Assembly: GCA_031393505.1 (NCBI GenBank)
Contig: JANMVX010000175.1
Span: 3,536 to 67,535, forward strand
Length of the DNA stretch: 64,000 nt
Reading direction: 5' to 3'
Source: Hyphomicrobiaceae bacterium
GTDB taxonomy: Bacteria; Pseudomonadota; Alphaproteobacteria; Rhizobiales; Hyphomicrobiaceae
In this document: positions 39,749 to 54,037 of the stretch, one piece after another
Layout of the letters: each line of letters opens with the position of its first letter
Numbering within the stretch: position 1 is the stretch's first letter
Notes under the pieces: model-generated
Told to the model about the DNA's origin: nothing
Database searches by the model: none
The model's input: only the letters and a program-made list of their open reading frames with translations
Position numbers and translations under genes: made by a program

Positions 39749-41656
39749 TTAGTAGGTGATGCGGGTCCGATGGTTGCCGGTGCCGGTGGCAGACGCCAGG
39801 CGGTTGGCGATATCGGTGAACACCGAGATCAGACCGTTCTGCGAGGCGGCGGCCGAGGTCACGTCGTAGAAGTGCTGAGCCACGTTTGCATTCCAAGGCG
39901 AAGCGCAAGCCTGCAGGGCCGTCTTGGACGTTGTATCGGAGCCCAACTCCAAACCGACAGTGAACACCTCAACGCCAGCTGCCTTCATGTTGGTGCAGAG
40001 CGTGGCGGCCTGACTGCGGGACCTGCCGTTGGCGACCGAGGCGTTGGAGTTGTTGTCTTCGGCGATGCTGGCGTAGTTCGTGTCATAGTGCAGGTTGTAG
40101 GCGCCGTCGGTCATCATCAAGACCACTTTCTTGACCAAGGCCGGGTCGGCGGCGGCGGGCTTGCTGCCAGCGGGCCAGAAGCTCGTCCACTTGTCCGAGA
40201 TGGTGTACCAGCCCCAAGCCATGCCGATGTGGCCGGCCGTGTAGCCTGCAGCGTGCTGGGCATCGATGGAGGCGTAGAGATCGGTACGGTTGTTGGTCAA
40301 GGGCAACAGCGGCTTGTCGGGGGCCGTGCAGTTCCGGCTGGAGGCGCTGGTGGTCGTGAAGGCATGGAACAGCTGGGTGGACGGCGCTGCGTCATCGTAA
40401 GCGTGACCGGTCGAAGCGAGACGCTCGGCCATGCAGGTGTTGACGTAGGAGGTGCGCTGGCAGGTGGCCTGGACCAGCTGCGTGGTGCAGACCTGATGCG
40501 AGCCCGATCCACCGCTGTGACCTTGATTGTTGTGACCGTTGCGGTCATAGCCATCGCGATCATAGCCGTCGTTGTCATAGCCGTGACTACCGTAGCCGCC
40601 GCCGTGGCTGCCACCCGTGCAGTTGCCACCGCCGCCGGCGCTGCGGTTGGTGCTCATGGCGCTGCGATTGCCCCAGTCGCTGCTACCGCCGTTGCCTGAG
40701 CCGTTGTGACCATCGTCGCCACCGTTGCCCCAGCCGTTGTTGCCGTGGCCGCCGCCACGGTGATGTCCTTGATCGTCGTCATAGTCACCTTCCTGGTCGT
40801 TTTCCCAATCGCCGCCGCTCCAATGCTGGCCGTTGCCATTGGTGTTGCTGACGGTCTGGCAAACCTGCTGCTGCGTGGTGCAGGTGTAGCTGCTGGTGGT
40901 GGAGGCAGCGACGCCCGTCGCCGCTTCGGCATAGGCGCCGGCGTTGACGTACTCGGAGAACGGCACAATGCTGACGCGCACGTTCGGGTTGGTGGAACCG
41001 GGGGGGATCAACACATCGACCAGGCGCTTGGCGGCGACCTTGGCCGTGGTCAGCTTGGCGTTGTCGTTCATCGATCCTGTCACGTCCATGACCAGAGCGA
41101 TTTCCAGCTTCTGGCTGGTCGCGCCGTCCGTGTCCATCGCCATCGAGGTCTGATTGCTCGTGATGCGGATCGTCGGCATGCCGATGGCCGCCAGGAACAT
41201 GGTCTTGACGTTGGCCCTGGCCGTCATTTTGACGTTGCCTTGGGCGTCGACCTTAACCGAAGTCAACTGGGCTTTGATGTTCTTGGGCAGCGTCTTGAAG
41301 AAGTATTTCTCCGCCACGATGGCGGCGTCCTTCATCTGCATCTGGTTGTTTTGGTTGGCCGTGTTGTTGGCATAAAGCGCGCCGCCGCCATCAAACGTGC
41401 GGCCAGCGGCCAGCGAGGCCTGATCCAGCGCGCGATCCATCGCTTCTTTGGTCGCGTAGCCGCGGCCGAAGTCGACCGTCATGCCCACGAACGCCACAGC
41501 GCACATGATCGAGAAACCGAACACCATGGTCATGTTGCCGCGCTCGTCCTTGGCGAAACCAAGGCGGCCGACATTCAGTGATTTTCCGCTGTTTTCAATC
41601 CGCGTCGCCGTGCGGGTGAATCCGTCGCGCATTATACGCCCCAAGTCGCAAAACAT
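39749..41656 (-). CDS. TadE/TadG-like N-terminal domain + vWA domain protein with a Gly/His/Asn/Asp-rich insert
   Basis: ORF 39749..41689. ATG 41656 is preferred (GGAGG 7 nt upstream). FAKDERGNMTMVFGFSIM...VDFGRG (Tad-like). MIDAS-like LVMDVTGSM. Low-complexity insert at about 40496-40843. Confidence 0.8.
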   Translation of the reverse strand: MFCDLGRIMRDGFTRTATRIENSGKSLNVGRLGFAKDERGNMTMVFGFSIMCAVAFVGMTVDFGRGYATKEAMDRALDQASLAAGRTFDGGGALYANNTANQNNQMQMKDAAIVAEKYFFKTLPKNIKAQLTSVKVDAQGNVKMTARANVKTMFLAAIGMPTIRITSNQTSMAMDTDGATSQKLEIALVMDVTGSMNDNAKLTTAKVAAKRLVDVLIPPGSTNPNVRVSIVPFSEYVNAGAYAEAATGVAASTTSSYTCTTQQQVCQTVSNTNGNGQHWSGGDWENDQEGDYDDDQGHHRGGGHGNNGWGNGGDDGHNGSGNGGSSDWGNRSAMSTNRSAGGGGNCTGGSHGGGYGSHGYDNDGYDRDGYDRNGHNNQGHSGGSGSHQVCTTQLVQATCQRTSYVNTCMAERLASTGHAYDDAAPSTQLFHAFTTTSASSRNCTAPDKPLLPLTNNRTDLYASIDAQHAAGYTAGHIGMAWGWYTISDKWTSFWPAGSKPAAADPALVKKVVLMMTDGAYNLHYDTNYASIAEDNNSNASVANGRSRSQAATLCTNMKAAGVEVFTVGLELGSDTTSKTALQACASPWNANVAQHFYDVTSAAASQNGLISVFTDIANRLASATGTGNHRTRITY

Positions 41657-41957
41657 TTTTTTGCCTCCACAATTGCGATTGGAGGCCAATGTGACGGTTG
41701 CGGGTTTACAAAAGGAACCGGGATTGCTCGCAATTTTATCGAATAGGGAATTAACCGGGTAGCGCGATGTTATTGTAGTTTCTCAATGGCTAATGGGGCG
41801 TCGAGGATTTTACTCAAACCGCTGAGAACCGCCTCCGTGTGCGACTTTGGCACGGGGCCGGAGCATTTGCCTTGGGCCGGTGCGCCCGCTATAGACGGCG
41901 CCAGATCACCCCTTGAACCATCCCGCCGCCGCCCCGAGCGGCCAAACCGAGGCTCCC

Positions 41958-43355
41958 ATGACCGCCACTGAATACAAAGTCGCCGACATCAAGCTCGCCG
42001 ATTTTGGCCGCAAGGAAATCGCCATCGCCGAAACCGAAATGCCGGGTCTGATGGCCATGCGCGCCGAATACGGCAAGGAGCAACCGCTGAAGGGGGCAAG
42101 AATCGCCGGCAGCCTGCATATGACCATTCAGACGGCGGTGCTGATCGAGACCTTGAAGGCGCTCGGCGCCGATGTCCGCTGGGCCTCCTGCAACATCTTC
42201 TCGACCCAGGATCATGCGGCGGCCGCGATCGCCGCCAGCGGAACCCCGGTGTTCGCCGTCAAGGGCGAAAGTCTGGTCGAATATTGGGACTATTCGGACC
42301 AGATTTTCCATTTCGCCAATGGCGAGACGGCCAACATGATCCTGGACGATGGCGGCGACGCCACCATGTACATCCTGCTCGGCGCCAAGGCCGAGAAGGA
42401 CATCTCGGTGCTGGCCAAGCCCGGCAATGAGGAAGAAGAGGCGCTGTTCGCCACCATCAAGCGCCGCATGGCCGCCAGCCCCGGCTGGTTCGCCAAAGCC
42501 AAGGCGCAGATCAAGGGCGTGTCGGAAGAGACCACCACTGGCGTGCATCGATTGTATATGATGGAGAAGGCCGGCGACCTGCCCTTCCCGGCCATCAACG
42601 TCAATGACTCGGTCACCAAGTCCAAATTCGACAACCTCTACGGCTGCCGCGAGAGCCTGGTGGACGCCATCCGCCGCGCTACAGACGTCATGTTGGCCGG
42701 CAAAGTCGCCGTGGTGGCCGGCTTCGGCGACGTCGGCAAGGGCTCGGCGGCCAGCCTCAAGCACGGCGGCGCGCGCGTGCTGGTGACCGAAGTCGACCCG
42801 ATCTGCGCCCTGCAGGCCGCCATGGAAGGCTACGAAGTCGTCACCATGGAGGACGCCGCCCCGCGCGCCGACATTTTTGTGACCGCGACCGGCAACAAGG
42901 ACGTGATCACCATCGAGCACATGCGCGAGATGAAGGACCGCGCCATCGTCTGCAACATCGGCCATTTCGACGCTGAAGTGCAGGTCGGCGCGCTACGCAA
43001 CCTGAAGTGGCACAACGTCAAGCCGCAAGTGGACGAGATCGAATTTCCGAACGGCCGCCGCATGCTGCTGCTGGCCGAAGGCCGCCTGGTGAACCTGGGC
43101 TGCGCCACCGGCCACCCCAGCTTCGTCATGTCGGCGTCGTTCACGAACCAGACCCTGGCGCAGATCGAGCTGTGGAAGCACGGCAAGAAGTACGAGAACA
43201 AGGTGTACACGCTGCCCAAACACCTCGACGAGAAGGTCGCGATGCTGCATCTGGCCAAGTTGGGTGTGAAGCTGACGAAACTGTCGAAGGATCAGGCGGA
43301 TTATATTGGGGTGACGCCGCAGGGGCCGTTCAAGCCGGATCATTATCGGTATTAG
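41958..43355 (+). CDS. ahcY: adenosylhomocysteinase
   Basis: ORF 41913..43355. Start at ATG 41958 (GAGG 5 nt upstream). [28 protein letters not shown] and [10 protein letters not shown] motifs. Confidence 0.95.
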
Positions 43356-43432
43356 GAGGGCGACCATTGTAGCCTAAAGTCTGCGGCGCCTGGTCCAGAG
43401 GTGCCGCAGTGAATGCCCTCACTGTCCTCGAA

Positions 43433-44404
43433 TTATTTCGATGCCATACGTCGCTTGATGGGAGAATAGTTCTTTTCCAACACGATGTGAATCGGATCCA
43501 AGACCGGTTTCGGGTCGCCGCCCTGCGGCCTCGCGTTGCCAAAAGTGTAAATCTGATATCCGAACCCCAAGGGCAGTGACGGCGAGATATCGATCACTGC
43601 GATACCGCTGTTGCCGAATTGCTTATCGACGGAAGTCCCCTCGGGGTGCAGCAATCCTACGCTTGACTCATCGTTTGTCTCACAAGCCGGTACGCGTTCT
43701 GCGCGACACTGATCTGTTGTGCTGAAGACTTTCGTTGGGTCGTCATTCAACTCCTTGCACCCGCATTCTTTCGCATAGGCGTTGTTTGCTTTGATTTCCG
43801 CCATTTTTTCGTCGAAAATCCGACGTCCCGTAGCGATCAATGCCAGTTCCGCTGCTGTCAGTTCGTTGCCCGTTCGCACGTCGTAACGGAATTTGCAGTC
43901 GTGGAAGGGCAATCCTCGCTTGAAGCAGTCTGGCACGACCAAGGGCAAGGCTTCGCTGATAACTCCTACGTCGAATTCCCCCTGTAAGGCCGTGGGACCG
44001 GCTTGTCTGACCGCTTCGATGTCGGCGACCATGTAGCTCGGCAATTGCTGGCCAGTCTCTGGATCATAGGCAAGCGGACTTTGCAGGGCGAGGCACAGAC
44101 TGTTCAGTGAGAACCCTCTCGCCTGGTATTGATTCAAAAAATCATCGGAGACAGAAATGAAGTTGCCGCCAAACCCGTAGTAATAGCATTTGTTCTTGAG
44201 CGGCGCCGTCTTATCCCCGCCGGGACCATAGTTCTGCAACGTGATGCCAAGCCTGCTGAGCTCAGCCGCCGATCCAAAAACAGCAGGATAGTTGGGTTCA
44301 GTGGATTCGACGGTTTCGGTGGTTTCAGCAGCATCCTGTGCGCTGACAGTTGTGGCCGCGCCGATCAGAACCGCGCACACCAGAGTCCGGAAGCAATGTT
44401 TCAT
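43433..44404 (-). CDS. secreted Cys-rich hypothetical protein (8 Cys in mature part)
   Basis: 323-aa ORF. Signal peptide MKHCFRTLVCAVLIGAATTVSA. GGAGG 9 nt upstream of the ATG. Markedly lower GC than the surroundings. No family recognised. Confidence 0.6.
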   Translation of the reverse strand: MKHCFRTLVCAVLIGAATTVSAQDAAETTETVESTEPNYPAVFGSAAELSRLGITLQNYGPGGDKTAPLKNKCYYYGFGGNFISVSDDFLNQYQARGFSLNSLCLALQSPLAYDPETGQQLPSYMVADIEAVRQAGPTALQGEFDVGVISEALPLVVPDCFKRGLPFHDCKFRYDVRTGNELTAAELALIATGRRIFDEKMAEIKANNAYAKECGCKELNDDPTKVFSTTDQCRAERVPACETNDESSVGLLHPEGTSVDKQFGNSGIAVIDISPSLPLGFGYQIYTFGNARPQGGDPKPVLDPIHIVLEKNYSPIKRRMASK

Positions 44405-44542
44405 GGCAAGAAACCTCCAGCTGCATCAAACGTAACAACTGACTAAGAGTTCACTCGACCTGCGGTTAGGCGAACATGCGAGCCTCCATGGATTGCAAGG
44501 GGAACCAATCGTCACGATGTCAGATCTACATGCAGCGCAGCC

Positions 44543-46804
44543 TCACTTCAGCAGCAGACGGTCAACCTCCTCCATCAGTGGATCGTTGAACCCGGCTTTT
44601 CGCAACAGTTCGAAATCGCCGCGAGCCAATTCCGCCCATTTGGCCCCCTTGGAATCGCCGATGCGGTTATGCGCAAGATACAACGTCCGCGCAGCATCAG
44701 TCTGTCCGGCTAACATCAGGACATCGGCGCGATTGATCTCGATCCAGCCCGTCTCTGGAGCCAAGCTGTGCGCATGCTCGGCGGCGGACACCGCACGGTC
44801 GAATTTTCGGTCGAACATGGCGTACCAAGCTAGATTGCCAAGCGCCTCGGCGCGGGTCGCGGGTTTGACCGGGTGCGCCTCTGTGATCGCGTCAAGCTGA
44901 CCGAGCAGAGTTTCGTGCAGTCGGTAGGCCGCATCCCGTTGGCCCAGGGCGACCTGCGCATCGGCCGACTTTCTAACCGTGGCGACCAGTTTTGCATCCA
45001 TATCCGAGCCGCGCTCGGGCGATTGCACCAATGCCAAGGCGATATCGGTCGCCGCCTGCAAGCGCGTCAGAGCTTCCGCCTGCCGCCCGCTGGCCTGATC
45101 CTCATCGCCCAGTGTGATCAGTGCGGAAAACGCCGCCCGTTTCCATTCCGCCCGCTCGCCGGCGTTACCCAGATGAAGCGCCAGTGCGGCCTCGGCAAGT
45201 TTGCGGGCTTCGGATGTCATGTCAGCTGCTGTTGGCCCTCCAGCCGCTGCGGCGTCGCGCAGGGCTGCGGCCAATCGGAGCTGGCCTTGCGCCACCTCCA
45301 GCCGCCACTCATCGCGCGTATCGGTGACCGCAAGCGCCAATGCGATGGCCAGATAGTCACGGTAATACTTGATCGCAGCGGGCAGCTTATTCTGGTCACG
45401 CTCGAAGTCGCCCAGTGTCACATACGTCACGCTCAAGTTGCGTTGCAGATCGGACCGGCCAGGATTATCGCTCGCCACCGGCTTTATTAAATCGAGGCTA
45501 AACTCAAGTTCGTCACGGGACGTTGCAGCGTCCCCGCGCTTCATGGCAAGTTCTGCTAGGCGTTCGTGGGCGAAGGCCAGGTTGCGCAATGTGTCCGGGG
45601 TCTTGGCCATTGCCAGCGACACCCTGATCTTCAGGTTCTGGTCGAGCAACACCTTGGACTTGGCGAACTCCGCTTCACCGGCGTTTGACGCATCTGCGAC
45701 CATGGCGCCGAGCTTTTCGGAGCACAGAGCCACCGTGTCCTGCCACTCAGGCATGTCCGATTGTTCCCGATCCAGCCCGCTGGCAAGGTCATGGCAGGTC
45801 TGGAAGGCCGTGAACGCTGCATCGGTGCGCCGGTCCTCCTTTAGCGCCTCGCCCAAGCGGTCATAGGCATTGGCGAGATCGGCGCGAAATTGGCGATTTT
45901 CCGGTTCCTGCTGCAGCAGACCTTTGAAACTGTCGACGGCTTGCTGCGCCAGCTCGGCGGCTTTTGTTGCCTGCCCCTGCTCGCGCCGCACCGTTGCGAT
46001 TTCCAGCAACGCCACGGCGCCGGTACGCACCACCTCCGGCGTCGGCGTGCTGATTTCCGATAGGGAACGGGTCAGCAATTCAGCCTGATCCAGCACGGCC
46101 AGCGTGACGTCCTGGGGAACGTTCAGGCGCTGCTTCATACTGCCTTCGATCTTGAACACCAGGTTGTTGGCCGCCACGGTCGCCAGCTCCACAGTCCGCG
46201 CCGCCCGGCCCCGCTGCACCTCGGCGATCCAACCCAGCAGCCCCGCCACGACGGCAATCGCCGCGAACACTACCGCCGCCGTGCCCATGGCCCGCACCCG
46301 CAAAGTTTCCTGCTTGGTGTGCTTGAAGCCCCGGATCAACTCGCTGAGGGCATGGCCCGAAGGTGGCCCATCCAGCTGATCAATCGGCTCCTCCAGCCGT
46401 AGCCAGTGGCTCTCCAGCGCCTCTTTGGCGAGCAGCGCGTCGGGCGGGGCCGCCTCGACCGAGCGATTGACGTTGATGATGACGGGCGTATGGCCTTGCG
46501 CCAGAGCCGCATCGACCTCGCGCTTGACCCATTCCGATTTCAGCGCCCGGGGCCGGGCGACCACCACAAGCGTCTTGCTTTTTCGCACCTGCCGGCGGGT
46601 CTCGCGCCGCAGGTCCAGCCCCGGCACATAGTCCGATTGGTCTAGAAAAACGCTGAAGCCGGCCTTCTGCAGGCTCTGACACAGTTGCCTGGGGTAGTTC
46701 GTCCCGTCGCCATGGGAGTAGGACAGGAAGAAGTCATAACCGAACAAATAGTCGGCCAGGCGCTGCAACAGGCCTGGTGGGCGCGGCGGCTTGGCATCCG
46801 ACAT
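44543..46804 (-). CDS. TIR domain - single TM helix - TPR-repeat protein
   Basis: ORF 44543..47392. Start moved to ATG 46804 (GGGAGGG upstream), because the 196-aa upstream extension is R/P/A-rich and overlaps the divL start region. TIR_2-like N-terminus (YDFFLSYSHGDG, FSVFLDQ, TLVVVARP, SEWVKREV). TM helix AMGTAAVVFAAIAVVAGLLGWIA. About 550 aa of helical repeats. Confidence 0.8.
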   Translation of the reverse strand: MSDAKPPRPPGLLQRLADYLFGYDFFLSYSHGDGTNYPRQLCQSLQKAGFSVFLDQSDYVPGLDLRRETRRQVRKSKTLVVVARPRALKSEWVKREVDAALAQGHTPVIINVNRSVEAAPPDALLAKEALESHWLRLEEPIDQLDGPPSGHALSELIRGFKHTKQETLRVRAMGTAAVVFAAIAVVAGLLGWIAEVQRGRAARTVELATVAANNLVFKIEGSMKQRLNVPQDVTLAVLDQAELLTRSLSEISTPTPEVVRTGAVALLEIATVRREQGQATKAAELAQQAVDSFKGLLQQEPENRQFRADLANAYDRLGEALKEDRRTDAAFTAFQTCHDLASGLDREQSDMPEWQDTVALCSEKLGAMVADASNAGEAEFAKSKVLLDQNLKIRVSLAMAKTPDTLRNLAFAHERLAELAMKRGDAATSRDELEFSLDLIKPVASDNPGRSDLQRNLSVTYVTLGDFERDQNKLPAAIKYYRDYLAIALALAVTDTRDEWRLEVAQGQLRLAAALRDAAAAGGPTAADMTSEARKLAEAALALHLGNAGERAEWKRAAFSALITLGDEDQASGRQAEALTRLQAATDIALALVQSPERGSDMDAKLVATVRKSADAQVALGQRDAAYRLHETLLGQLDAITEAHPVKPATRAEALGNLAWYAMFDRKFDRAVSAAEHAHSLAPETGWIEINRADVLMLAGQTDAARTLYLAHNRIGDSKGAKWAELARGDFELLRKAGFNDPLMEEVDRLLLK

Positions 46805-47022
46805 AGTTCCCTCCCGAGTGATCGGCCTGCGGATAAGTATAGTCCGCCAGGCTTGGCACCGTCTATCAGCGGCAAACGAACGGCCGGAAACGCACACATC
46901 GAGCAGCCGGACCAGCCCCGGCAGCGACATCGCCCCGGCTGGCATCGCCGTCGCCACTCCCGCATACTGCCAACCTGATTCGTTGGTTCGCGTCGCCGCC
47001 CTGCAGCCAGCCCCGAGCCACC

Positions 47023-49506
47023 ATGCCCCTCGCCAGCCTCGCCACCCCCCTTGAGCCGCGCCAGGCCCGGCTGATGGCGCTTGCCTCAGCGGCATTGGCG
47101 GGCGGTCTTGGCTTTGTCTCGCTGCTGCAGAGCGAACCCGGCGCCGCCTCCATGGTGCCGACCGCGACCAACCTGTTGCTGCTGGCGGCCACCGCGGGGG
47201 GGGCGGCCCTGGCCACCACGCTCGCCTTGCGGTTTCGCGCTCAGCTGCGCGGCGGCGGGGCGGAACTGTCAGCGCTGCGGGCGGAACACGCCGCCATGGC
47301 CCGGCGTCTGGAGATTGCCGAGACCGTCGGCAGCCCTGCCGCCGAGACGCTGGTTTATTGGGACGCCGCCCGCGAACCCCTGTTGCATTCATCGGGCATC
47401 GATCCGCGCCATGGCGTTCCGTCCAGCGCCACGGCCATCCTTGCCGCCGGCTGGCTCGACCCGGCCGCCGCGCAAGTGTTCCGCACCCACACCGACCGGC
47501 TGGTGCGCGACGGCAAACCCTTCGCTCTGACCGCGGCCACCACCGCCGGCGGCGCCATGCAGCTCTCCGGCGAGGTGCGGGGCGCCTACGCCATCCTGCG
47601 CATCGCCGACGTTTCGGCCGAACGCAAGGCGATGCGCGACATGGAAGAGCGCGGGGTGCGCGTCACCCGCGACGCGGCCCTGACGCGCGCCCTTTACGAA
47701 GCCCTCCCCGTCCCCGTGTGGTTCCGCTCCGCCGACGGCAAGATCGATTGGGTGAACTCGGCCTATGTGCGCGCCGTGGACGGATTTTCGCGCGAGGACG
47801 TGCGCGGCCGCCAAGTCGAACTGCTGGAAACCCGTCAGCGTGCGTCGGTTTCCGCCTCGCTCACGGCCGGCCGCATCCACCGCGAGCGCGTGCATGTGTT
47901 CGTGGGCGGAGAACGCCGGTCCTACGACCTGGTCGCCGTGCCGATGGACGGCGCCAGCGCGCTGATCGCCAACGACGCCGCAGCGCTCGAAACCGCGCAA
48001 GGCGAACTCTCGCGCCAGATGGCCGCCTACGATCGCACGCTGGACCGCGTCGCCACGGCCGTCGCCAACTTCGGCCCGGACCAGCGCCTGGTCTATTGCA
48101 ACGAAGCCTACCGCCAGCTTTGGAAGCTCGACCCCGAGTTCCTGAAATCCCGCCCCAAGGACGGCGAAGTGCTCGACCGCCTGCGCGAACGCCGCCAGCT
48201 CCCCGAGGAGGCCGACTACCGCAAATGGAAAGCGGCGCTGCTGGCGAGCTACACGTCCCAAACCGGTCAGGAAGCCTGGTGGTATCTCCCGAGCGGGCGC
48301 ACGGTACACGTCACAATCGAGCAGCGCCCGGATGGCGGCGTTGCCTATCTCTATGATGACGTGACGGAAAAACTCGCACTGGAACGCCGCTACCACACCG
48401 CCATGAACATTCAGCGCGGCACGCTGGACACCTTGCGCGAAGGTGTCGCGGTGTTCGCCACCGACGGCAGATTGTCCTTGTTCAACCCATCGTTTGCGCG
48501 GCTGTGGAAGCTGAACCCGAACGACCTCGCGCGCGAGCCGCATGTCGACGAAGTGGTGCGCCGCTGCTCCGTGCTGCATACGGACGACGCCACCTGGGCC
48601 AACATCAAGCGCGCCGTGACCACGATCAGCGGCCAGCGCCAGCGCCTGCAGGGCCTGATGGAGCGCCCCGACCAGAGCGTCATCGCCTACGCCGGCCTGC
48701 CCCTGCCCGACGGCGCCATGCTGCTGACGTTCGTCGACACCACGGATACGACGCGTGCTGAGCGCATGCTGCGCGAGAGGAATGACGCGCTTGTGCAGGC
48801 CGACCGCCTGAAGTCGCAGTTCATCTCGCTGGTGTCGTACGAACTGCGCTCGCCCTTGCAGAACATCATCGGCTTCTCTGAATTTTTGGAGAACCCAAAG
48901 GTCGGACCGCTCAATCCCAAGCAGCGCGAGTACCTGCACGACATCCACGGCTCCTCGCGCACCCTGCTCTCGATCATCAACGACATCCTGGACCTGACCA
49001 CCATCGACGCCGGCGCGCTGGAGCTGAAGCGCGCGCCGGTAAAGGTTGCGCATGTCGTCGCCAGCGCGGCGGCCGCCGTGGAAGAGCGCATGACACGCGA
49101 ACGGATTACCTTGCGCGAAAACATCGATCCGTCAGCGTCTGAATTTTTGGCCGACGAACACCGCGTCAAACAGGTGCTCTATAACCTCTTGTCCAACGCC
49201 ATCGGCTTCTCGAAAGAGGGGGACACCATCGTGCTGGATTGCCGCCGCGAGGGCGACACCATCTCCTTCAGCGTCACCGACCGCGGCATCGGCATCCCGC
49301 TGGAAGACCAGCCCAAGGTGTTCGAGCGGTTCGTTTCGCGCGCGCAAGGGTCGAGGCATCGCGGCGCGGGGCTGGGGTTGCCGATTGTAAAACACTTGGT
49401 CGAGCTGCACGGCGGCGCCGTCGCACTCAGGTCCGAGCCGGGCAAGGGCACGCGCGTTACGGTGCGGTTCCCGGTCGGCGCCAAGGGGCTGATGGCGGCG
49501 GAGTAG
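47023..49506 (+). CDS. divL: DivL-type PAS sensor kinase-like protein (Tyr replaces the phospho-accepting His)
   Basis: 827-aa ORF with PAS-like repeats. The H-box reads FISLVSYELRSPLQNIIGFSEFL (Tyr codon TAC at 48838-48840). HATPase_c motifs are present (NLLSNAIGFS, DRGIGIP, GAGLGLPIVK). Confidence 0.7.
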   Translation: MPLASLATPLEPRQARLMALASAALAGGLGFVSLLQSEPGAASMVPTATNLLLLAATAGGAALATTLALRFRAQLRGGGAELSALRAEHAAMARRLEIAETVGSPAAETLVYWDAAREPLLHSSGIDPRHGVPSSATAILAAGWLDPAAAQVFRTHTDRLVRDGKPFALTAATTAGGAMQLSGEVRGAYAILRIADVSAERKAMRDMEERGVRVTRDAALTRALYEALPVPVWFRSADGKIDWVNSAYVRAVDGFSREDVRGRQVELLETRQRASVSASLTAGRIHRERVHVFVGGERRSYDLVAVPMDGASALIANDAAALETAQGELSRQMAAYDRTLDRVATAVANFGPDQRLVYCNEAYRQLWKLDPEFLKSRPKDGEVLDRLRERRQLPEEADYRKWKAALLASYTSQTGQEAWWYLPSGRTVHVTIEQRPDGGVAYLYDDVTEKLALERRYHTAMNIQRGTLDTLREGVAVFATDGRLSLFNPSFARLWKLNPNDLAREPHVDEVVRRCSVLHTDDATWANIKRAVTTISGQRQRLQGLMERPDQSVIAYAGLPLPDGAMLLTFVDTTDTTRAERMLRERNDALVQADRLKSQFISLVSYELRSPLQNIIGFSEFLENPKVGPLNPKQREYLHDIHGSSRTLLSIINDILDLTTIDAGALELKRAPVKVAHVVASAAAAVEERMTRERITLRENIDPSASEFLADEHRVKQVLYNLLSNAIGFSKEGDTIVLDCRREGDTISFSVTDRGIGIPLEDQPKVFERFVSRAQGSRHRGAGLGLPIVKHLVELHGGAVALRSEPGKGTRVTVRFPVGAKGLMAAE

Positions 49507-49516
49507 GGGCGAGTCG

Positions 49517-49665
49517 CCCCCTCATCCGGCCAAAGGCCACCTTCTCCCCGTGAAAAACGGGGAGAAGGAAAAGCGATCCCAGCCTCGCCGGCGAGGCCAA
49601 GGAACGTGTCCTTTCTTTCTCCCCATTTTTCATGGGGAGAAGGTGGCCTTTGGCCGGATGAGGGG
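49517..49665. repeat. 149-bp nested palindrome (CCCCCTCATCCGGCCAAAGGCCACCTTCTCCCC ... GGGGAGAAGGTGGCCTTTGGCCGGATGAGGGG)
   Basis: Outer arms 49517-49549 / 49634-49665. Each arm also forms a local hairpin (CTTCTCCCCGTGAAAAACGGGGAGAAGG). Central palindrome GCCTCGCCGGCGAGGC. Confidence 0.75.
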
Positions 49666-49730
49666 AGGGCTTGCACCGGCGTTCAGTGCAGGGCACGGTC
49701 GGGTCAGCAGATGCAGTCTCAGGCCCGACG

Positions 49731-50096
49731 ATGCGCCCAGACAACTCTCAAACGCTCGCCCGCGCCCGCAGCCTGCGCGCCAATGCAACGCGCGCGGAGG
49801 ATCTGCTCTGGGCGCGCCTGCGCGACCGCCGGCTGGACGATCTGAAGTTCACGCAGCAAACGCCGGTCGGCCCATGGGTGCCAGACTTCGTCTGCCGTCA
49901 GCATAAAGTCATCGTCGAAATCGATGGCGCGACCCACGGTACGCCTGAGGAAATTGCTCGCGATCTGGCCCGGACGTCGGATCTTGTGGCGCGCGGATAT
50001 CGGATCTATCGCGTCGACAATCGCGACGTGTATCGAAATTTGGTTGGGGTGTTGGACGGCATCCTCGATTGCATACGGAACCGGGGCGACACTTGA
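49731..50096 (+). CDS. DUF559 (Vsr-like) endonuclease domain protein, copy 1
   Basis: ORF 49671..50096. Start at ATG 49731. ARSLRANATRAEDLLWARLRDRRL...FTQQTPVGPWVPDFVC...VIVEIDGATH...RGYRIYRV is typical of DUF559. Confidence 0.8.
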   Translation: MRPDNSQTLARARSLRANATRAEDLLWARLRDRRLDDLKFTQQTPVGPWVPDFVCRQHKVIVEIDGATHGTPEEIARDLARTSDLVARGYRIYRVDNRDVYRNLVGVLDGILDCIRNRGDT

Positions 50097-50100
50097 CGAC

Positions 50101-50273
50101 GGAGCAAGTGGCCCCCTCATCCGGCCAAAGGCCACCTTCTCCCCATAAGAATGGGGGAGAAGGAAAATAAACCGTTCCTTGACCTTGCCAGAAAGGCCGC
50201 ACTCGCTATTTCCTTCGCCCCGTACTTACGGGGAGAAGGTGGCCTTTGGCCGGATGAGGGGGCCGCTTGCTCC
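50101..50273. repeat. 173-bp nested palindrome of the same family
   Basis: Outer arms GGAGCAAGTGGCCCCCTCATCCGGCCAAAGGCCACCTTCTCCCC (50101-50144) / reverse complement at 50230-50273. Begins 4 bp after the DUF559 stop. Confidence 0.75.
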
Positions 50274-50356
50274 GCGCCATCGACTGGCGCATCGTCAGCC
50301 GAACACTGGCAAGCTCGTGCCACCCCACCACCAGTCACAAAACAGGCAGCTGACAC

Positions 50357-52357
50357 ATGACACGCACCAGATGGGGCATCATCGGACCCGGAGCCATCGC
50401 GCACAACTTTGCCGACGGCCTGGCCGAATCCAAATCCGGCGTGCTCGCCGCAATCGCCAGCCGCGACGATGCCCGGCGGAAAGACTTCGGCGACCACTAC
50501 AAACTTCCTGCCGCCAAGTGTTACTCCGACTACGCCGCACTCGCGGCCGATCCCGACATCGACGCCGTCTACATTTCCACGCCCCATCCCTGGCATGCGG
50601 AACTCTCCATCATGGCCATGCGCGCCGGAAAAGCCGTCGTGTGCGAAAAACCGGCCGGCATGAACGCGGCCGAAGTCGTCGCCATGATCGAGGTCGCGAC
50701 TCAGCAAAAGGTCTTCTTCATGGAAGCCTTCATGTACCGCTGCCATCCGCAGATCGCGCGCCTGCTGGCGATCATCGCTTCCGGGGAAATCGGGCGCGTG
50801 CAGCATATCCAGACCCGTTTTGGCTTTGCCGCAACGCACGACCCGAAATCGCGGCTGTTCGATCCCGCGCTTGGCGGGGGCGGGATTCTCGATGTCGGCG
50901 GCTATCCGGTGTCTTTGGCGCGGCTGGTGGCGGGAGCGGCCATCGGGAAACCGTTCGATGATCCGGTCACGGTCAAGGGATCGGGCATCCTGGGCACGAC
51001 CGGGGTCGATGAGGTCGCCTACGGACTGTTGGGATTTTCCAGCGGCGTGACGGCGGAAATCGCCTGCGCGACCACCCGGGCCATGGACAATTCCGCGACC
51101 ATCATAGGCGAAAAAGGCCGCATCGAGCTGGCCGACCCTTGGGTGCCGGGACGCAATGCCGGACCTTCGGATACGACCATCACGGTGACCATCAGCGACA
51201 AGCAGCGCGTCGAGCAACTGCGCCACCCGGAACATCTGTTTACGTTCGAGGCGGAGCTGGCCAGCCGCGCCATCGCGGACGGAAAGCTCGAAGCCGACGC
51301 CCCCGCCATGAGCCACGCCGACAGCATTGGCAGCAACCGCACGCAGGATCGCTGGCGGCAGGAGCTGGGCTATGTGACCTTTGCCGAAACACCCAAGACC
51401 AATCGGCGTCTGGCCGGTGTGTTGCCTAATGGGCTGCCGAAAATTCCGCAGCAGCGCATCGACGGTGTTGCGCAGCCCGTTTCCAAACTGATCCTCGGTT
51501 GCGACAACCAGAACGACATCGGCGGCGGCGCAATCGTCTGGGACGCTTGGATGGAAGCGGGCGGCAACGCCTTCGATACCGGGTTCGTCTATGGCGGCGG
51601 ACAGCACGAAAAGGTGCTCGGACAATGGATATCTTCTCGCGGCATCGCCAAGGACGTGGTGGTCATCGCGAAAGGCGGGCACACGCCTTATTGCACGCCG
51701 CGCGCCATCGGGGCGCAGCTCGAGATGTCGCTCGACCGCCTCGGCCTCGATCACGCTCCCATTTACATCATGCATCGCGACAACCCAGACGTGCCGGTGG
51801 GTGAATTCGTCGACGCGCTTAACCGTCTGCATAAAGACGGAAAAATCGGCGTGTTCGGCGGTTCGAACTGGTCGGTGTCGCGATTCCGTGAGGCGGCTGA
51901 TTATGCAGCGAAGCAAAAGCTGAAACCGCTGACGATCCTCAACAACAACCTCTCGCTCGCCGTGATGGAAAAGCCGGTCTGGGCCGGTTGCATTACGTCG
52001 AACACGCCGGAAACGTTAAAAGCCTTGCGGGACGGCGACATTGCGCATTTCAGCTGGTCGTCGCAGGCGCGCGGCTATTTCCTGCCCGAGGCCCTGCGCA
52101 ATCGGCTGCCGGCCGACACCGCGCCGGAGACCTGCTTCGGCAGCCAAGCCAACGCCGGGCGCCGCAACCGTGCGGAAACACTCGCGAAAAAATATGGCGT
52201 ATCGCCCCACAATATCGCCACCGCCTGGGTGCTGGCGCAGAGTTTCCCGTCGTTCGCCCTGGTCGGGTCGCGCACGGCCGGCGAGATCGCCTCGACGTTG
52301 CCTGGGCTGGGTGTGGCGCTGACCGCGCAGGAGGCGTTGTGGCTGAACCTGGAATAG
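50357..52357 (+). CDS. fusion protein: Gfo/Idh/MocA NAD(P)-oxidoreductase (N) + aldo/keto reductase (C)
   Basis: 666-aa ORF. N-terminus WGIIGPGAIAHNF...VYISTPHPWHAE...VVCEKP. C-terminus AFDTGFVYGGGQHEKVLG, LDRLGLDHAPIYIMHRD, GKIGVFGGSNW. Confidence 0.8.
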   Translation: MTRTRWGIIGPGAIAHNFADGLAESKSGVLAAIASRDDARRKDFGDHYKLPAAKCYSDYAALAADPDIDAVYISTPHPWHAELSIMAMRAGKAVVCEKPAGMNAAEVVAMIEVATQQKVFFMEAFMYRCHPQIARLLAIIASGEIGRVQHIQTRFGFAATHDPKSRLFDPALGGGGILDVGGYPVSLARLVAGAAIGKPFDDPVTVKGSGILGTTGVDEVAYGLLGFSSGVTAEIACATTRAMDNSATIIGEKGRIELADPWVPGRNAGPSDTTITVTISDKQRVEQLRHPEHLFTFEAELASRAIADGKLEADAPAMSHADSIGSNRTQDRWRQELGYVTFAETPKTNRRLAGVLPNGLPKIPQQRIDGVAQPVSKLILGCDNQNDIGGGAIVWDAWMEAGGNAFDTGFVYGGGQHEKVLGQWISSRGIAKDVVVIAKGGHTPYCTPRAIGAQLEMSLDRLGLDHAPIYIMHRDNPDVPVGEFVDALNRLHKDGKIGVFGGSNWSVSRFREAADYAAKQKLKPLTILNNNLSLAVMEKPVWAGCITSNTPETLKALRDGDIAHFSWSSQARGYFLPEALRNRLPADTAPETCFGSQANAGRRNRAETLAKKYGVSPHNIATAWVLAQSFPSFALVGSRTAGEIASTLPGLGVALTAQEALWLNLE

Positions 52358-52362
52358 CCGGT

Positions 52363-52458
52363 GGAATAAACGGGGACAGTTTACTTATATCGCGCCGAGA
52401 GATCGCCGGTGTTCGAACGTCGGTGACGTGATATAACTAAACTGTCCCCGTTTATTCC
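52363..52458. repeat. AT-rich hairpin with 29-nt arms (28/29) between convergent genes; possible terminator or REP
   Basis: GGAATAAACGGGGACAGTTTACTTATATC (52363-52391) versus the reverse complement of 52430-52458. Confidence 0.65.
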
Positions 52459-52460
52459 CC

Positions 52461-53732
52461 TCAGTTCGTCAGCACCGGCGTGCTGCTGACCGGCATGGTC
52501 GCGACCGCATCGGCGATCTTTTCGATCATGTGGGTGACGCCGTCGTCCAAGGCGCCGCCGCGCATGTATTTGTCCCAGGCCAGGATGGGCGCCCAGCCGC
52601 TGGTGGGATCGGTGGGTGCAATGCCGCTTTGCGGCAGGCCGTTCGGATAGAAATGCACCAGCAGCTTGTTGGCCTGCGGGATGACGGCGGGATCGCTCCA
52701 CTTTGCGGCCAGGCCCGCATAGTCGCGCGGCATCACGGTGTCGGCCGGATAGTTGGGATTGTCGAGGCTGAACGCATGGCTTGGTTCGTGGGCGTTCTCA
52801 TCCGACCAGATCGCAACCACCGACATGACCGAGGAGGCTGCAACGTCGCCCGAGACCGCCGTGATCGGATCGCCGACTTTGAGCCAGGGCGAGTTCATGG
52901 CTTCGTTCAGGCATTCCAGACCGGATTCGGTGTAGTCGCCGCCGCCCGATTCGACCTCGGGTTGAACGAAGTCCGCGAATAGCGTCTCCTCGAACGGCAG
53001 TTTGAAGAAGCCGGTGGCGGCGCGCAGTGGAACGTCATCGCCATTATTGGTGGGAACGCTTGCGGGCCGCACCTGCCAGCCGAGCGGGAACTTGTCAACC
53101 AGCCAGCCGTCGGCGGCATTGTACCGGACGTTGCCGTCGAAATCGCGAAAGAAGATCGGGCGCACCCGGATTAAATCGAACTCCGGCAGCCCGCGACCGA
53201 CCAGTTCGGAATTCAGATTGCCGTAAAAGCCCAGAGCGCGAGAGATGACGCCGTTGATCAAGAACTGCATCGAGCCCGTCGCATCGATGCACATGGCGAT
53301 GTCGAGGGCGCGCCCGACGTGCTGACTGGTGGCGGTTGCGTCGACCGAAACGTCCATCGCGTCGATGCCGATCACGGGGCTGACATAGCCGCGGACATGG
53401 GCGGTGATGCGGACATGAATGCCGCCGCCCGAGAGCTCTGCGCTGACCACGGCGCCTTCCGCGGTTTTGGGCAATTCCAGTGTCAATGCGGTCTGCAGCG
53501 TCGTTCGTGCAATTGCGACACGATCCGCCACGTTAGGCAAGGGGCTGGCTGCGGCCGCCATGACGGCGCGATCGGCGATCGATTGCAGGGCCGTCTTGTA
53601 GTGAGACGCGTTACCATAGTCGATCGCCAGGCCGGCAAAGGCGGCGACAACCGCAAATCCCAAAGCGAAGACGACGGCGATCGAGCCATTGTGGTCGATC
53701 GCAAAGCTGGTCTGTGGGTTTGGCGCGCGCAT
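52461..53732 (-). CDS. TadE/TadG-like N-terminal domain + vWA-like protein (second orphan copy)
   Basis: 423-aa ORF. NGSIAVVFALGFAVVAAFAGLAIDYG (Tad-like). MIDAS-like AMCIDATGSM. Confidence 0.7.
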   Translation of the reverse strand: MRAPNPQTSFAIDHNGSIAVVFALGFAVVAAFAGLAIDYGNASHYKTALQSIADRAVMAAAASPLPNVADRVAIARTTLQTALTLELPKTAEGAVVSAELSGGGIHVRITAHVRGYVSPVIGIDAMDVSVDATATSQHVGRALDIAMCIDATGSMQFLINGVISRALGFYGNLNSELVGRGLPEFDLIRVRPIFFRDFDGNVRYNAADGWLVDKFPLGWQVRPASVPTNNGDDVPLRAATGFFKLPFEETLFADFVQPEVESGGGDYTESGLECLNEAMNSPWLKVGDPITAVSGDVAASSVMSVVAIWSDENAHEPSHAFSLDNPNYPADTVMPRDYAGLAAKWSDPAVIPQANKLLVHFYPNGLPQSGIAPTDPTSGWAPILAWDKYMRGGALDDGVTHMIEKIADAVATMPVSSTPVLTN

Positions 53733-54037
53733 GTTGGGGTGGAGGCTCAGCGTTTGATCCGTGCTGAGCAGACTGCTTGAAGACTGCTAAGGTTCGATTA
53801 CAGTTAATTTTAAGATGACGAAGACCTCGATCAACTTTCGTTGCGCTCTTTCTGCCAGTAGCAAGACTTGGACTCCTAAGCTAAGTATAGTCCCGAATAT
53901 TGCTGACGTAAGGCGCAACGGCGTAACCGGCGCGACGACACGCCGGCCTGACAGGAGGGGCGGGCGAGCGATAGTCTCGCTCACACGACCTGTTGACGGT
54001 TCATCGGGCTGGCAGGCCAGGACTTCAGGGACTCTCG

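Follow-up and report, generated by a model that had tools for sequence, protein, structure and literature searches.

A TIR-TPR membrane protein and a secreted cysteine-rich partner: a possible envelope-sensing conflict module inserted between ahcY and divL

What might a bacterial TIR domain do when it is tied through the membrane to a large repeat array and encoded beside a secreted, cysteine-rich protein? The question is raised by two adjacent genes, here called A and B, that lie between ahcY and divL in a 64,000-nucleotide stretch of bacterial DNA (the window; Table 1). The reading that we infer, and to which we give about an even chance of being right, is that these two genes form an envelope-sensing conflict (immune-type) module that arrived by horizontal transfer and uses a TIR domain as its output.

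Table 1. Positions in the window of the insertion, its two genes and their parts
Feature	Position	Strand	Description
Insertion	43357..46950	.	~3.6 kb, between ahcY stop (43355) and conserved divL upstream region; right edge approximate
Possible terminator	43381..43409	-	GC-rich hairpin just 3' of B, between convergent B and ahcY
Gene B	43433..44404	-	exported, 323 aa, family undescribed, 8 Cys in mature part
Signal peptide of B	44339..44404	-	aa 1-22, predicted cleavage between VSA and QD; from sequence, hydrophobic N-terminal segment
Shine-Dalgarno of B	44414..44418	-	GGAGG, 9 nt upstream of start codon; sequence reading
Gene A	44543..46804	-	753-aa bitopic membrane protein: TIR, juxtamembrane helix, TM, TPR solenoid
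TPR-like superhelical array of A	44546..46207	-	aa 200-753, predicted periplasmic; Pfam, AF2, Foldseek; location from topology and fusions
Single TM helix of A	46220..46288	-	aa 173-195; Kyte-Doolittle, AF2; preceded by basic juxtamembrane HTKQETLRVR
TIR domain of A	46385..46747	-	aa 20-140, predicted cytoplasmic; Pfam TIR_2, PDB sequence matches, AF2
E96 codon of A	46517..46519	-	putative catalytic Glu of W92-x-x-x-E96; aligns to AbTir E208, W92 to W204
Shine-Dalgarno of A	46809..46815	-	GGGAGGG, 4 nt upstream of start codon; sequence reading
Sigma-70-like promoter match	46836..46865	-	TAGACG-18-TATACT, ~30 nt upstream of A start; weak consensus match

By sequence comparison, the pair is an insertion and was horizontally acquired, because ahcY and divL lie 210-300 bp apart in two relatives and because B occupies the lowest-GC kilobase. 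The spacing is 3,664 bp in the window as against 209 bp in L014/L015, whose DivL is 83% identical to that of the window, and about 297 bp in L013, whose flanks share 81-84% nucleotide identity with it; no trace of A or B is present in either interval. An earlier note on this DNA had described ahcY and divL as near neighbours in other Rhizobiales and had proposed an insertion on that basis, and the relatives bear it out. The alignment to L013 and L014 breaks off at 43353-43356 and picks up again at 47021, and an upstream motif, CTCCCGCATACTG (about 46956), is conserved in the window, L013 and L014. The left flank encodes adenosylhomocysteinase, as judged from the AdoHcyase Pfam families on syntenic orthologues, and the right flank a PAS/HisKA/HATPase kinase in whose H-box, SYELRSPL, Tyr replaces His as in DivL. 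A target-site duplication, terminal repeats, a tRNA and an integrase were looked for at the insertion and none was found. The insertion contains A and B alone and its flanking genes are housekeeping genes, syntenic in relatives that lack it, which agrees with the earlier remark that the usual partners of TIR proteins are absent.

The region, especially 43.4-44.5 kb, had also been described as AT-richer than its flanks, and this holds mainly for B and the two intergenic stretches rather than for the whole 3.6 kb. Within the 64 kb, only the B region falls below 0.58 GC in 1-kb windows (0.542; mean 0.646, sd 0.031), and the GC3 of B is 0.63 compared with 0.78-0.86 in neighbouring genes; A is mildly deviant (GC 0.631, GC3 0.744). 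Both genes do have the strong Shine-Dalgarno sequences claimed for them. On the minus strand, the stretch that separates A from B showed no terminator-like site, and the hairpin 3' of B has an RNA folding energy of -33.1 kcal/mol (z = -2.7 relative to shuffles).

The product of gene A begins MSDAKPP, and an identical 753-aa product is called in public assemblies (P0001); a longer, 949-aa reading frame was rejected, as it would overlap divL. Its N-terminus matches Pfam TIR_2 over aa 25-122 (E 1.7e-17; 64.5 bits, cut-off 28), and Pfam TIR and ThsB_TIR (1.4e-05) are likewise above cut-off. Sequence matches in the PDB include AbTir, PdTIR, TLR1/2, SARM1 and BtpA/TcpB, and the AF2 model of this part alternates strands with helices at block-mean pLDDT of ~66-90. 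In AbTir, NADase activity needs S140, R151, D167, W204 and E208, mutation of S140, R151 or D167 abolishes it, and the Trp of the WxxxE motif is tied to 2'cADPR production (PMC11374754). At each of the five aligned positions A has the same amino acid (S28, R39, D55, W92 and E96), and four of these (S28, D55, W92 and E96) are invariant among 24 homologues (alignment A2). These identities favour catalysis and suggest that the TIR domain of A is of the NAD-cleaving type.

Beyond the TIR domain, A has a single hydrophobic segment (Kyte-Doolittle maximum 2.48 at aa 176-194) within an unbroken AF2 helix (aa 150-195), and this segment and its basic N-terminal flank recur in 24 of 24 aligned homologues. 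Pfam TPR_12 and TPR_2 score above cut-off on the remainder, which AF2 models as a solenoid of ~550 aa and ~27 helices (aa 201-752, pLDDT about 90); the best Foldseek matches are the TPR-containing proteins or complexes OGT, SPINDLY (SPY), Ski3/SKI and Ctr9/Paf1. Every part of the earlier note's description of A thus stands: the TIR_2 domain, the candidate catalytic Glu at E96, the one TM helix and the long TPR-like repeat region. We strongly infer that A is a single-pass inner-membrane protein with, by prediction, its TIR domain in the cytoplasm and its TPR superhelix in the periplasm. Across the A family, mean pairwise identity is 75% in the TIR module and 40% in the TPR array (65% and 24%, respectively, relative to window A). 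Conservation of the one with divergence of the other suggests receptor-like evolution.

Gene B starts 138 bp 3' of A on the same strand, and the signal peptide and eight mature cysteines previously read in its product were found again. The predicted signal peptide is MKHCFRTLVCAVLIGAATTVSA, followed by QD, and a hydrophobic N-terminal segment is present in 129 of the 152 Met-starting representatives of the B family, which strongly points to export of B by the Sec pathway. The cysteines of mature B (positions 73, 104, 160, 170, 214, 216, 233 and 241) suggest, where conserved, a disulfide-bonded protein. The earlier note could place B in no family; indeed, searches of Pfam, NCBIfam, PADLOC and PHROGs gave no match to B, and its AF2 model (pLDDT 86.6, pTM 0.84) has no fold neighbour in the PDB or BFVD. 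The B family has no invariant Cys/His/Ser-type catalytic set, and no His is invariant or nearly so.

The functional pairing of A and B proposed earlier is strengthened by every further A-family locus whose downstream DNA can be read, since each carries one or two B-family genes after A. The order A then B on one strand, with gaps of 14-138 bp, is seen in the window, L001, L004, L017 (two B copies), L018/L019 and L021, and at L005 two B copies in tandem come after the end of a TPR gene; the loci sit in unrelated genomic contexts. Natural fusions indicate on which side of the membrane the parts lie. P0061 and P0192 are TIR-TM-B proteins, P0219 joins a weakly hydrolase-like domain through a TM helix to B, and P0034-P0038 join the same TIR-TM module to WD40 propellers, so that B and the TPR array would both lie outside the cytoplasmic membrane. 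The two TIR-TM-B fusions, together with a B gene that follows a secreted Sel1-repeat protein (L009), uphold the earlier suggestion of an extracytoplasmic TPR array. B-family proteins are also repeatedly fused to other domains, the commonest N-terminal additions being bacterial SH3 domains of the peptidoglycan-binding type (at least 10 representatives) and, next, LprI lysozyme-inhibitor domains (2).

The distribution of the family is sporadic. B was found in 1 of 185,579 species-representative genomes; the named relatives are metagenome-assembled genomes assigned to Hyphomicrobium/Hyphomicrobiales, plus one plasmid of Rhizobium, and other matches come from metagenome assemblies. The plasmid, CP050566.1 of cultured Rhizobium leguminosarum, carries the A-B pair among conflict-system genes encoding a second TM-TIR protein, a PDC-S60-like protein, a TPR-S (DUF4071) protein that weakly matches a TIR effector model of PADLOC, a patatin effector and a SLATT protein. 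In R. leguminosarum RCAM2802 the pair bears the locus tags HB774_34545/34540. These surroundings look like a defence island and strengthen the case for a putative envelope-sensing abortive-infection or signalling function.

How such a module could work can be sketched from its layout. B would dock onto the periplasmic TPR array as a ligand-recognising co-sensor, and an extracytoplasmic cue, perhaps damage to the cell wall or some component of a phage or a competitor, would alter the state of the TPR-B assembly. The conserved juxtamembrane/TM helix would relay this change through receptor clustering and so bring the TIR domains close to one another, the event that activates other TIR NADases. 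The assembled TIR domains would then cleave NAD+, leading to growth arrest or abortive infection, and a cyclic-ADPR-type signal may also be produced, since A has kept the Trp that is linked to 2'cADPR production by AbTir. Several findings weigh against the immune-type reading. In the window the insertion lies between housekeeping genes rather than in a defence island, and PADLOC and NCBIfam called no recognised defence system: on A they gave only partial TIR-domain matches far under family cut-offs, the best being PADLOC PDC-S66 (81 of 282 model positions) and NCBIfam ThcB4 (Thoeris type III; 44.8 bits, curated cut-off 220), both confined to the TIR core (A ~23-104) and both families without a TM helix, TPR array or B. 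Moreover, B occurs without A in L008 and L006 and therefore has a function independent of A. P0303, in which a B domain precedes a CHAT protease and no TM helix is obvious between the two, departs from a simple rule of sensor outside and effector inside, and AF2 confidence is low over the TM helix and linker of A (pLDDT <50, aa 169-203).

Part of this evidence would also fit a signal-generating half of a Thoeris-like pathway, in which the membrane TIR, on sensing a cue in the periplasm, would produce a cADPR-isomer second messenger that activates an effector encoded elsewhere in the genome, and would not itself kill through NAD+ depletion. The TIR of A is nearest to ThsB-type models (Pfam ThsB_TIR, PADLOC ThsB and NCBIfam ThcB4, the last at 7e-12), the WxxxE Trp is invariant in its family, and SLATT and patatin effector-type genes lie <6 kb from the pair on the Rhizobium plasmid. 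However, the scores are far under family cut-offs, the window insertion holds A and B alone, and none of the loci examined has a ThsA, SLOG, Macro or SAVED receptor gene alongside the pair, which makes this pathway unlikely. A slightly less probable role is non-immune surveillance of the envelope or cell wall, where B would bind peptidoglycan or a wall enzyme and A would relay wall status as a stress or developmental signal, with its output going to cytoplasmic NAD metabolism or partner proteins. The SH3 and LprI domains on B-family N-termini, the B genes without A and the host lineage, which the names of DivL relatives suggest to be Hyphomicrobiaceae, are all compatible with such a role. Against it, the pair is strain-specific, spread by horizontal transfer and sporadic in its occurrence, cytoplasmic effector-type domains (TIR, the weakly hydrolase-like domain) swap on the same TM module, one B protein bears a C-terminal CHAT domain, B is tandemly duplicated and the plasmid context resembles a defence island. 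Domain swaps, tandem duplication, defence-island-like context and sporadic distribution are hallmarks of conflict systems, which favours a conflict system over housekeeping signalling.

TIR domains can serve purely as assembly scaffolds, and the matches of A include the TIR domains of TLR1 and TLR2; its TIR might accordingly be a non-enzymatic adaptor that recruits a cytoplasmic partner, as in animal TLRs, or else B might be a secreted toxin with A as its regulator or immunity protein. Both are improbable: the NADase-critical residues shared with AbTir speak for catalysis, B is tethered directly to a TM helix in several proteins, which is incompatible with a released toxin, and its family has no invariant catalytic set of the Cys/His/Ser type. 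Similarity to the TIR domains of BtpA/TcpB and PdTIR would also fit A as a Tcp-like virulence factor that subverts the TIR signalling of a eukaryotic host, but A is membrane-anchored with its TIR predicted to face the bacterial cytoplasm, there is no evident secretion signal for TIR delivery, and the named relatives are the Hyphomicrobium/Hyphomicrobiales genomes and the Rhizobium plasmid, so that this role is highly improbable.

The preferred reading, an envelope-sensing conflict module, can be set beside systems already described. AbTir, PdTIR and Thoeris ThsB share with A the TIR_2-type fold and the WxxxE catalytic motif, and AbTir the further residues required for NADase activity; they are soluble and cytoplasmic, whereas in A one TM helix joins the TIR to a large repeat array that is predicted to be periplasmic. 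ThsB acts with an adjacent ThsA effector, whereas A has the secreted partner B and no linked ThsA-like gene. Multidomain TIR-TPR and TIR-WD40 conflict proteins (Kaur et al. 2020, PMC7159879; 'group 6' TIR-TPR, PMC7075850) resemble A in an N-terminal TIR with C-terminal superstructure-forming repeats, and resemble A-B in sporadic distribution and swappable effector and sensor modules. In the sections covered, those architectures are built round STAND, vWA-MoxR or GTPase components, with membrane association mentioned only for other components; A instead has no NTPase, a TM helix that splits effector from repeats, so that the repeats are predicted to face the periplasm, and a dedicated, co-occurring secreted partner family. 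Text searches of both papers found no description of the A-B arrangement, and literature searches turned up no published account of the system, in keeping with the earlier view that the architecture had not been described.

In layout, A-B mirrors animal TLR4 with its secreted co-receptor MD-2, and likewise Toll-Spaetzle, by analogy and not by ancestry or chain order: an extracytoplasmic solenoid with a small secreted Cys-rich partner, and one TM helix that leads to a TIR in the cytoplasm. Ligand-induced TIR clustering also matches the predicted activation logic of A-B. The repeats are LRR in the animal receptors and TPR in A, the TIR is N-terminal in A, and no similarity of B to either MD-2 or Spaetzle was detected. 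Unlike these receptors, A retains the catalytic Glu, and its output is therefore probably enzymatic. The envelope-coupled anti-phage system Zorya shares the concept of a complex in the inner membrane whose periplasmic domain is coupled to effectors in the cytoplasm, but its proteins, a MotAB-like motor (ZorAB) and nucleases, are unrelated to A and B and overlap with them neither in sequence nor in domains (PMC11946911). Dictyostelium TirC, a TIR NADase held to the membrane by a single hydrophobic helix, is like A in this tether but is eukaryotic, with an N-terminal helix, no ectodomain and no secreted partner; its membrane tether has been proposed to restrain activation (PMC13142454).

Gene A, the upstream member of the pair that lies between ahcY and divL, encodes a protein with a TIR domain, one predicted transmembrane (TM) helix and a long array of TPR repeats. 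Its N-terminus, which the earlier note had read as TIR from the bare sequence, scores as such in HMM searches: residues 25-122 match TIR_2 (PF13676) at E 1.7e-17 and 64.5 bits against a cut-off of 28, and the TIR and ThsB_TIR profiles also exceed their Pfam cut-offs. The sole strongly hydrophobic segment follows at residues 176-194 (Kyte-Doolittle maximum 2.48). The remainder belongs with the TPR proteins, both by its matches to the Pfam families TPR_12 (45 bits, cut-off 30.1) and TPR_2 (32 bits, cut-off 27) and by the helical-hairpin array of its AF2 model. Built from 24 homologues with a mean pLDDT of 84, this model places a TIR fold at residues 25-139, a long helix containing the TM segment at 150-195 and about 27 helices over 201-752. 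The nearest folds in Foldseek are TPR-containing proteins or complexes (OGT, SPINDLY, Ski3/SKI and Ctr9/Paf1), with E about 1e-8 to 1e-10 against OGT, SPY and Ski3; full-length A retrieves generic TPR proteins only, which confirms the solenoid and nothing further.

Positions of the features discussed
Feature	Position	Strand	Description
Gene A	44543..46804	(-)	ORF, 753 aa, N-terminus MSDAKPP
Gene B	43433..44404	(-)	323 aa, 138 bp downstream of A, same strand
Assembly ends within A	~45860-45900		TPR-coding part of A
Tad/VWA-like protein	39749-41689	(-)	upstream of ahcY
Second strain-variable segment	~49511-54038		right of divL
Repeat copies	49506-49678, 50100-50274		~150-180 nt, both orientations
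DUF559 ORF	49671..50096		small, Vsr-like endonuclease
GFO_IDH_MocA/aldo-keto-reductase fusion	50357..52357		within the second strain-variable segment

An identical product is a called gene in public assemblies (P0001), and an alternative in-frame ORF of 949 aa, which would cross the divL start, finds no support among homologues. Strong Shine-Dalgarno sequences precede both A and B. About 30 nt before A there is a weak promoter-like match; between the two genes no terminator-like site was found, and B is followed by a stable hairpin. A regulatory RNA or small ORF in the A-B gap was considered and rejected, as the fold of the gap does not surpass that of shuffled sequence (z = +0.59). The contigs of L011 and L012, independent metagenome assemblies of this species, both end within the TPR-coding part of A, and these breaks could reflect strain-level variation of the array.

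The earlier note had proposed that the pair is an insertion and that its region is AT-richer than the flanking DNA, and this is largely borne out. Contigs of the same species (L003, L011 and L012, 99-100% nucleotide identity) carry A at this site and are therefore uninformative on the empty site, so that more distant relatives were required; an exact look-up of AhcY yielded no other contig. Relatives on long contigs were found by searching with the right-flank kinase, in which Tyr replaces the His of the H-box (SYELRSPL), as it does in DivL. In GCA_031367715.1 (L014/L015, DivL 83% identical) the order is VWA, AdoHcyase, 209 bp and DivL, and on a 1.03-Mb contig (L013, flanks at 81-84% nucleotide identity) the gap in homology between ahcY and divL is about 297 bp, compared with an ahcY-divL distance of 3,664 bp in the window. 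No trace of A or B was detected by tblastn at either locus. The B region has a GC content of 54.2% against a window mean of 64.6% (sd 3.1%) and holds the only 1-kb windows below 58% in 64 kb; GC3 is 0.63 for B and 0.78-0.86 for neighbouring genes. The AT-richer composition holds mainly for B and the two intergenic stretches; A is only mildly deviant (GC3 0.74). The borders bear no mark of a mobile element or genomic island, as neither target-site duplication, terminal (inverted) repeats, tRNA, integrase, transposase nor recombinase was found there, and the intergenic DNA of the relatives is itself variable. That the pair was acquired is read solely from its composition and from the relatives in which the site is empty. 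A phage origin was rejected: both genes are missing from GenBank phages and IMG/VR, and the PHROG matches of A cover the TIR core only.

Right of divL, a second strain-variable segment carries a DUF559 gene, a GFO_IDH_MocA/aldo-keto-reductase fusion and a Tad-like gene; it is missing in L014/L015, where a TsaE/APH gene directly follows divL, and is present in part in L013. Repeats (78-88% identical), also found in L011/L012, flank the DUF559 ORF, apparently as copies of an intergenic element that bracket this gene. On the other side of the pair, upstream of ahcY, the Tad/VWA-like protein contains a long low-complexity insert rich in G/N/H/D/Y at roughly residues 290-390.

Judged by alignment, A carries a clear member of the TIR superfamily with the catalytic signature of the NADase type. 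Its TIR domain aligns without gaps with AbTir, PdTIR and related TIRs, and S28, R39, D55, W92 and E96 fall on AbTir S140, R151, D167, W204 and E208, every one of which is needed for the NADase activity of AbTir (PMC11374754). The Glu is part of WxxxE, a motif that most bacterial TIR NADases rely on (PMC11374754), and A combines it with the Ser, Arg and Asp that AbTir needs for its activity. S28, D55, W92 and E96 are invariant across the 24-sequence alignment of A homologues. E96, singled out early as the candidate catalytic Glu, is upheld at the alignment level, since it matches AbTir E208 and is invariant.

The partner, B, has a typical signal peptide with cleavage predicted after residue 22 (VSA|QD) and eight cysteines in its mature part. 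Its AF2 model is confident (pLDDT 86.6, pTM 0.84) and shows a mixed alpha/beta domain. No match was found in Pfam, NCBIfam, PADLOC or PHROGs, the B profile has no match at E <= 1 among PDB sequences, and Foldseek returns no fold neighbour (best E 5.3 in PDB, 1.9 in BFVD). When 1.84 billion representatives were scanned in full with an HMM, 314 clusters at 50% identity were found, 154 of them with E <= 1e-30; 129 of 152 Met-starting members have a hydrophobic N-terminus. B defines a new family of predicted exported proteins with no detectable fold relative. Cys 73, 104, 160 and 170 are kept family-wide, including in short forms of 245 aa; the remaining four lie within about residues 205-245, a segment missing from the short forms. 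The reading of B as a hydrolase is rejected for the present. The family has no invariant or almost invariant histidine, which makes a Cys/His hydrolase unlikely, and its conserved cysteines seem to serve a structural role, two core pairs being retained in the 245-aa forms. B is more probably a disulfide-stabilised binding domain. Among its fusions are a signal peptide-SH3_3-B form (at least 10 representatives), a signal peptide-LprI-B form (2) and a B-CHAT form (1); the SH3 and LprI fusions hint that B could be tied to the cell wall or to lysozyme.

A and B recur together in other genomes. About 33 full-length homologues of A (31-42% identity) and, in a word-indexed search, 20 of B were found, and every A-family gene that is readable together with the DNA downstream has a B-family gene after it on the same strand. 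In one unrelated context (L001), a 42% identical A precedes a 53% identical B across a 29-bp gap. A Hyphomicrobiales MAG (L004) has an A-like gene with a divergent TIR and SH3-B downstream, and a Hyphomicrobium MAG (L017) follows P0007 with two tandem short B copies. P0030 is followed by a short B (L018/L019, profile E 1e-39), and on plasmid p_2 of R. leguminosarum RCAM2802 (L021) HB774_34545 is followed by HB774_34540 (E 1e-39). At L005 two tandem B copies lie downstream of what is only the end of a TPR gene, and P0006 is followed by an unannotated 212-aa gene. B also occurs without A (L006 and L008) and, at L009, after a secreted Sel1-repeat protein. Among 185,579 species-representative genomes, the B family is found at one locus only.

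The arrangement of the pair across the membrane can be read from natural fusions. P0061 and P0192 consist of TIR, TM and B, and P0216, truncated at its N-terminus, resembles them; the TIR-TM profile of the A family matches P0061 at E 1.9e-42. In P0219 a GxSxG-type hydrolase-like domain takes the place of TIR (a weak DUF900 match, under the Pfam cut-off), and P0034-P0038 join WD40 propellers to this TIR-juxtamembrane-TM cassette (53-60% identity with A). The motif QRDRAQRxLD after the TM helix is common to these architectures, and the TIR-TM unit is a reusable cassette. Since standalone B is predicted to be exported, and since B in the fusions comes after the TM helix, this helix would have its C-terminal side in the periplasm. 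The TPR array of A would then be periplasmic as well, and its TIR domain would face the cytoplasm, the compartment that contains NAD+. Basic residues N-terminal of the A helix are consistent with a cytoplasmic TIR. Mean pairwise identity in the A family falls from 75% in the TIR domain through 71% in the juxtamembrane segment and 58% in the TM helix to 40% in the TPR array; against the window's A it is 65% in the TIR domain and 24% in the TPR array. Receptors of conflict systems are expected to show such a pattern, with a conserved output attached to an ectodomain that diverges fast or can be swapped.

Two further proteins bear on this layout. P0303, a B-family representative of 869 aa, has a signal peptide or anchor, a B domain and a CHAT (caspase-like) protease, with no obvious TM segment between B and CHAT. 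Its CHAT domain would lie outside the cytoplasm, or its topology differs; either way it fits poorly with a simple scheme of sensor outside and effector inside. In Rhizobium beringeri, the region at 712-723 kb of plasmid NZ_CP140877.1 (L022) includes a TIR-coding stretch with 33% identity to residues 18-169 of A; it leads into an ORF that starts with a TM helix and continues with a cysteine-containing domain of about 760 aa. No B gene lies near it, and it may represent another ectodomain on the same TIR-TM cassette.

Several established systems built on TIR domains were weighed against the pair. Thoeris can be set aside because its ThsA is missing and scores lie under cut-off: A reaches 44.8 bits against 220 for NCBIfam ThcB4, and PADLOC ThsB models match the TIR core only, at E 1.8e-05 or weaker. 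As the earlier note had remarked, none of the usual TIR partners accompanies the pair; the insertion holds A and B only, and no ThsA-type effector (SIR2/SLOG, Macro-TM or similar) adjoins the pair in L001, L004, L017, L018 or L021. A STAND or NLR-like protein (Avs, bNACHT, TIR-NLR) would require an NTPase, and no P-loop STAND NTPase was found in A with Pfam, NCBIfam or PADLOC, a juxtamembrane helix and the TM helix alone separating TIR from TPR. PDC-S66 matches A at E 6.8e-12 in PADLOC over model positions 149-229 of 282, the TIR core alone, and was rejected accordingly. ThsB, AbTir, TIR-STING and TIR-SAVED, the characterised bacterial systems taken for comparison, are all soluble proteins of the cytoplasm. 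TIR-TPR and TIR-WD40 proteins are already known from bacteria (PMC7159879, PMC7075850). The literature searched, including these two papers as far as searched by term, holds no description of a TIR divided by a TM helix from periplasmic repeats and provided with a dedicated secreted partner.

Taken together, the observation that opened this study is confirmed, and its structural and evolutionary interpretation is supported by the TIR/TM/TPR anatomy, the insertion and the conserved pairing. We rate A and B as a putative TIR conflict system with a new membrane-receptor format and a new partner family. A defensive, envelope-sensing function is a well-motivated inference, and we would give about even odds to the pair being an envelope-sensing, NAD+-cleaving receptor. 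More tentatively, and with rather more doubt than belief, some bacteria may possess outside-in TIR receptors, in which a conserved cytoplasmic TIR-juxtamembrane-TM cassette is combined with interchangeable periplasmic sensors and ligand capture in the periplasm leads to NAD+ cleavage inside. Such a sensor would be the B domain alone, a set of WD40 propellers, or a TPR array whose co-receptor is secreted B; B would serve to bind the ligand, as a domain without detectable fold relatives. In function, TLR4-MD-2 is the closest analogy, alike in predicted layout and not in ancestry. If true, receptors of this kind would constitute a prokaryotic counterpart of TLR/MD-2 logic. By linking a TIR enzyme across the membrane to a sensor in the periplasm, they would widen TIR immunity to the detection of threats before or during passage through the envelope. 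It would also offer a bacterial model for how ligand binding by an ectodomain leads to TIR assembly, the central unsolved step of Toll-like receptor signalling.

R. leguminosarum RCAM2802, with HB774_34545 and HB774_34540 on plasmid p_2, provides a cultured, genetically tractable carrier of the pair. There, the stretch at 35.8-48.1 kb of CP050566.1 looks like a defence-island-style cluster with two TM-containing TIR proteins, one of them in the A-B pair. The first TIR gene of the stretch, HB774_34555, overlaps by 4 bp a 262-aa ORF with no family match. Conflict-type genes lie within 6 kb of the pair: they encode the other TM-containing TIR protein, a PDC-S60-like protein (E 1.9e-41), a TPR-S (DUF4071) protein that weakly matches a PADLOC TIR effector model (E 3.1e-07), a patatin phospholipase with matches to effector models of PADLOC (E 1.5e-44), a muramidase bearing a PG_binding_1 domain and a SLATT_1/DUF4231 protein.
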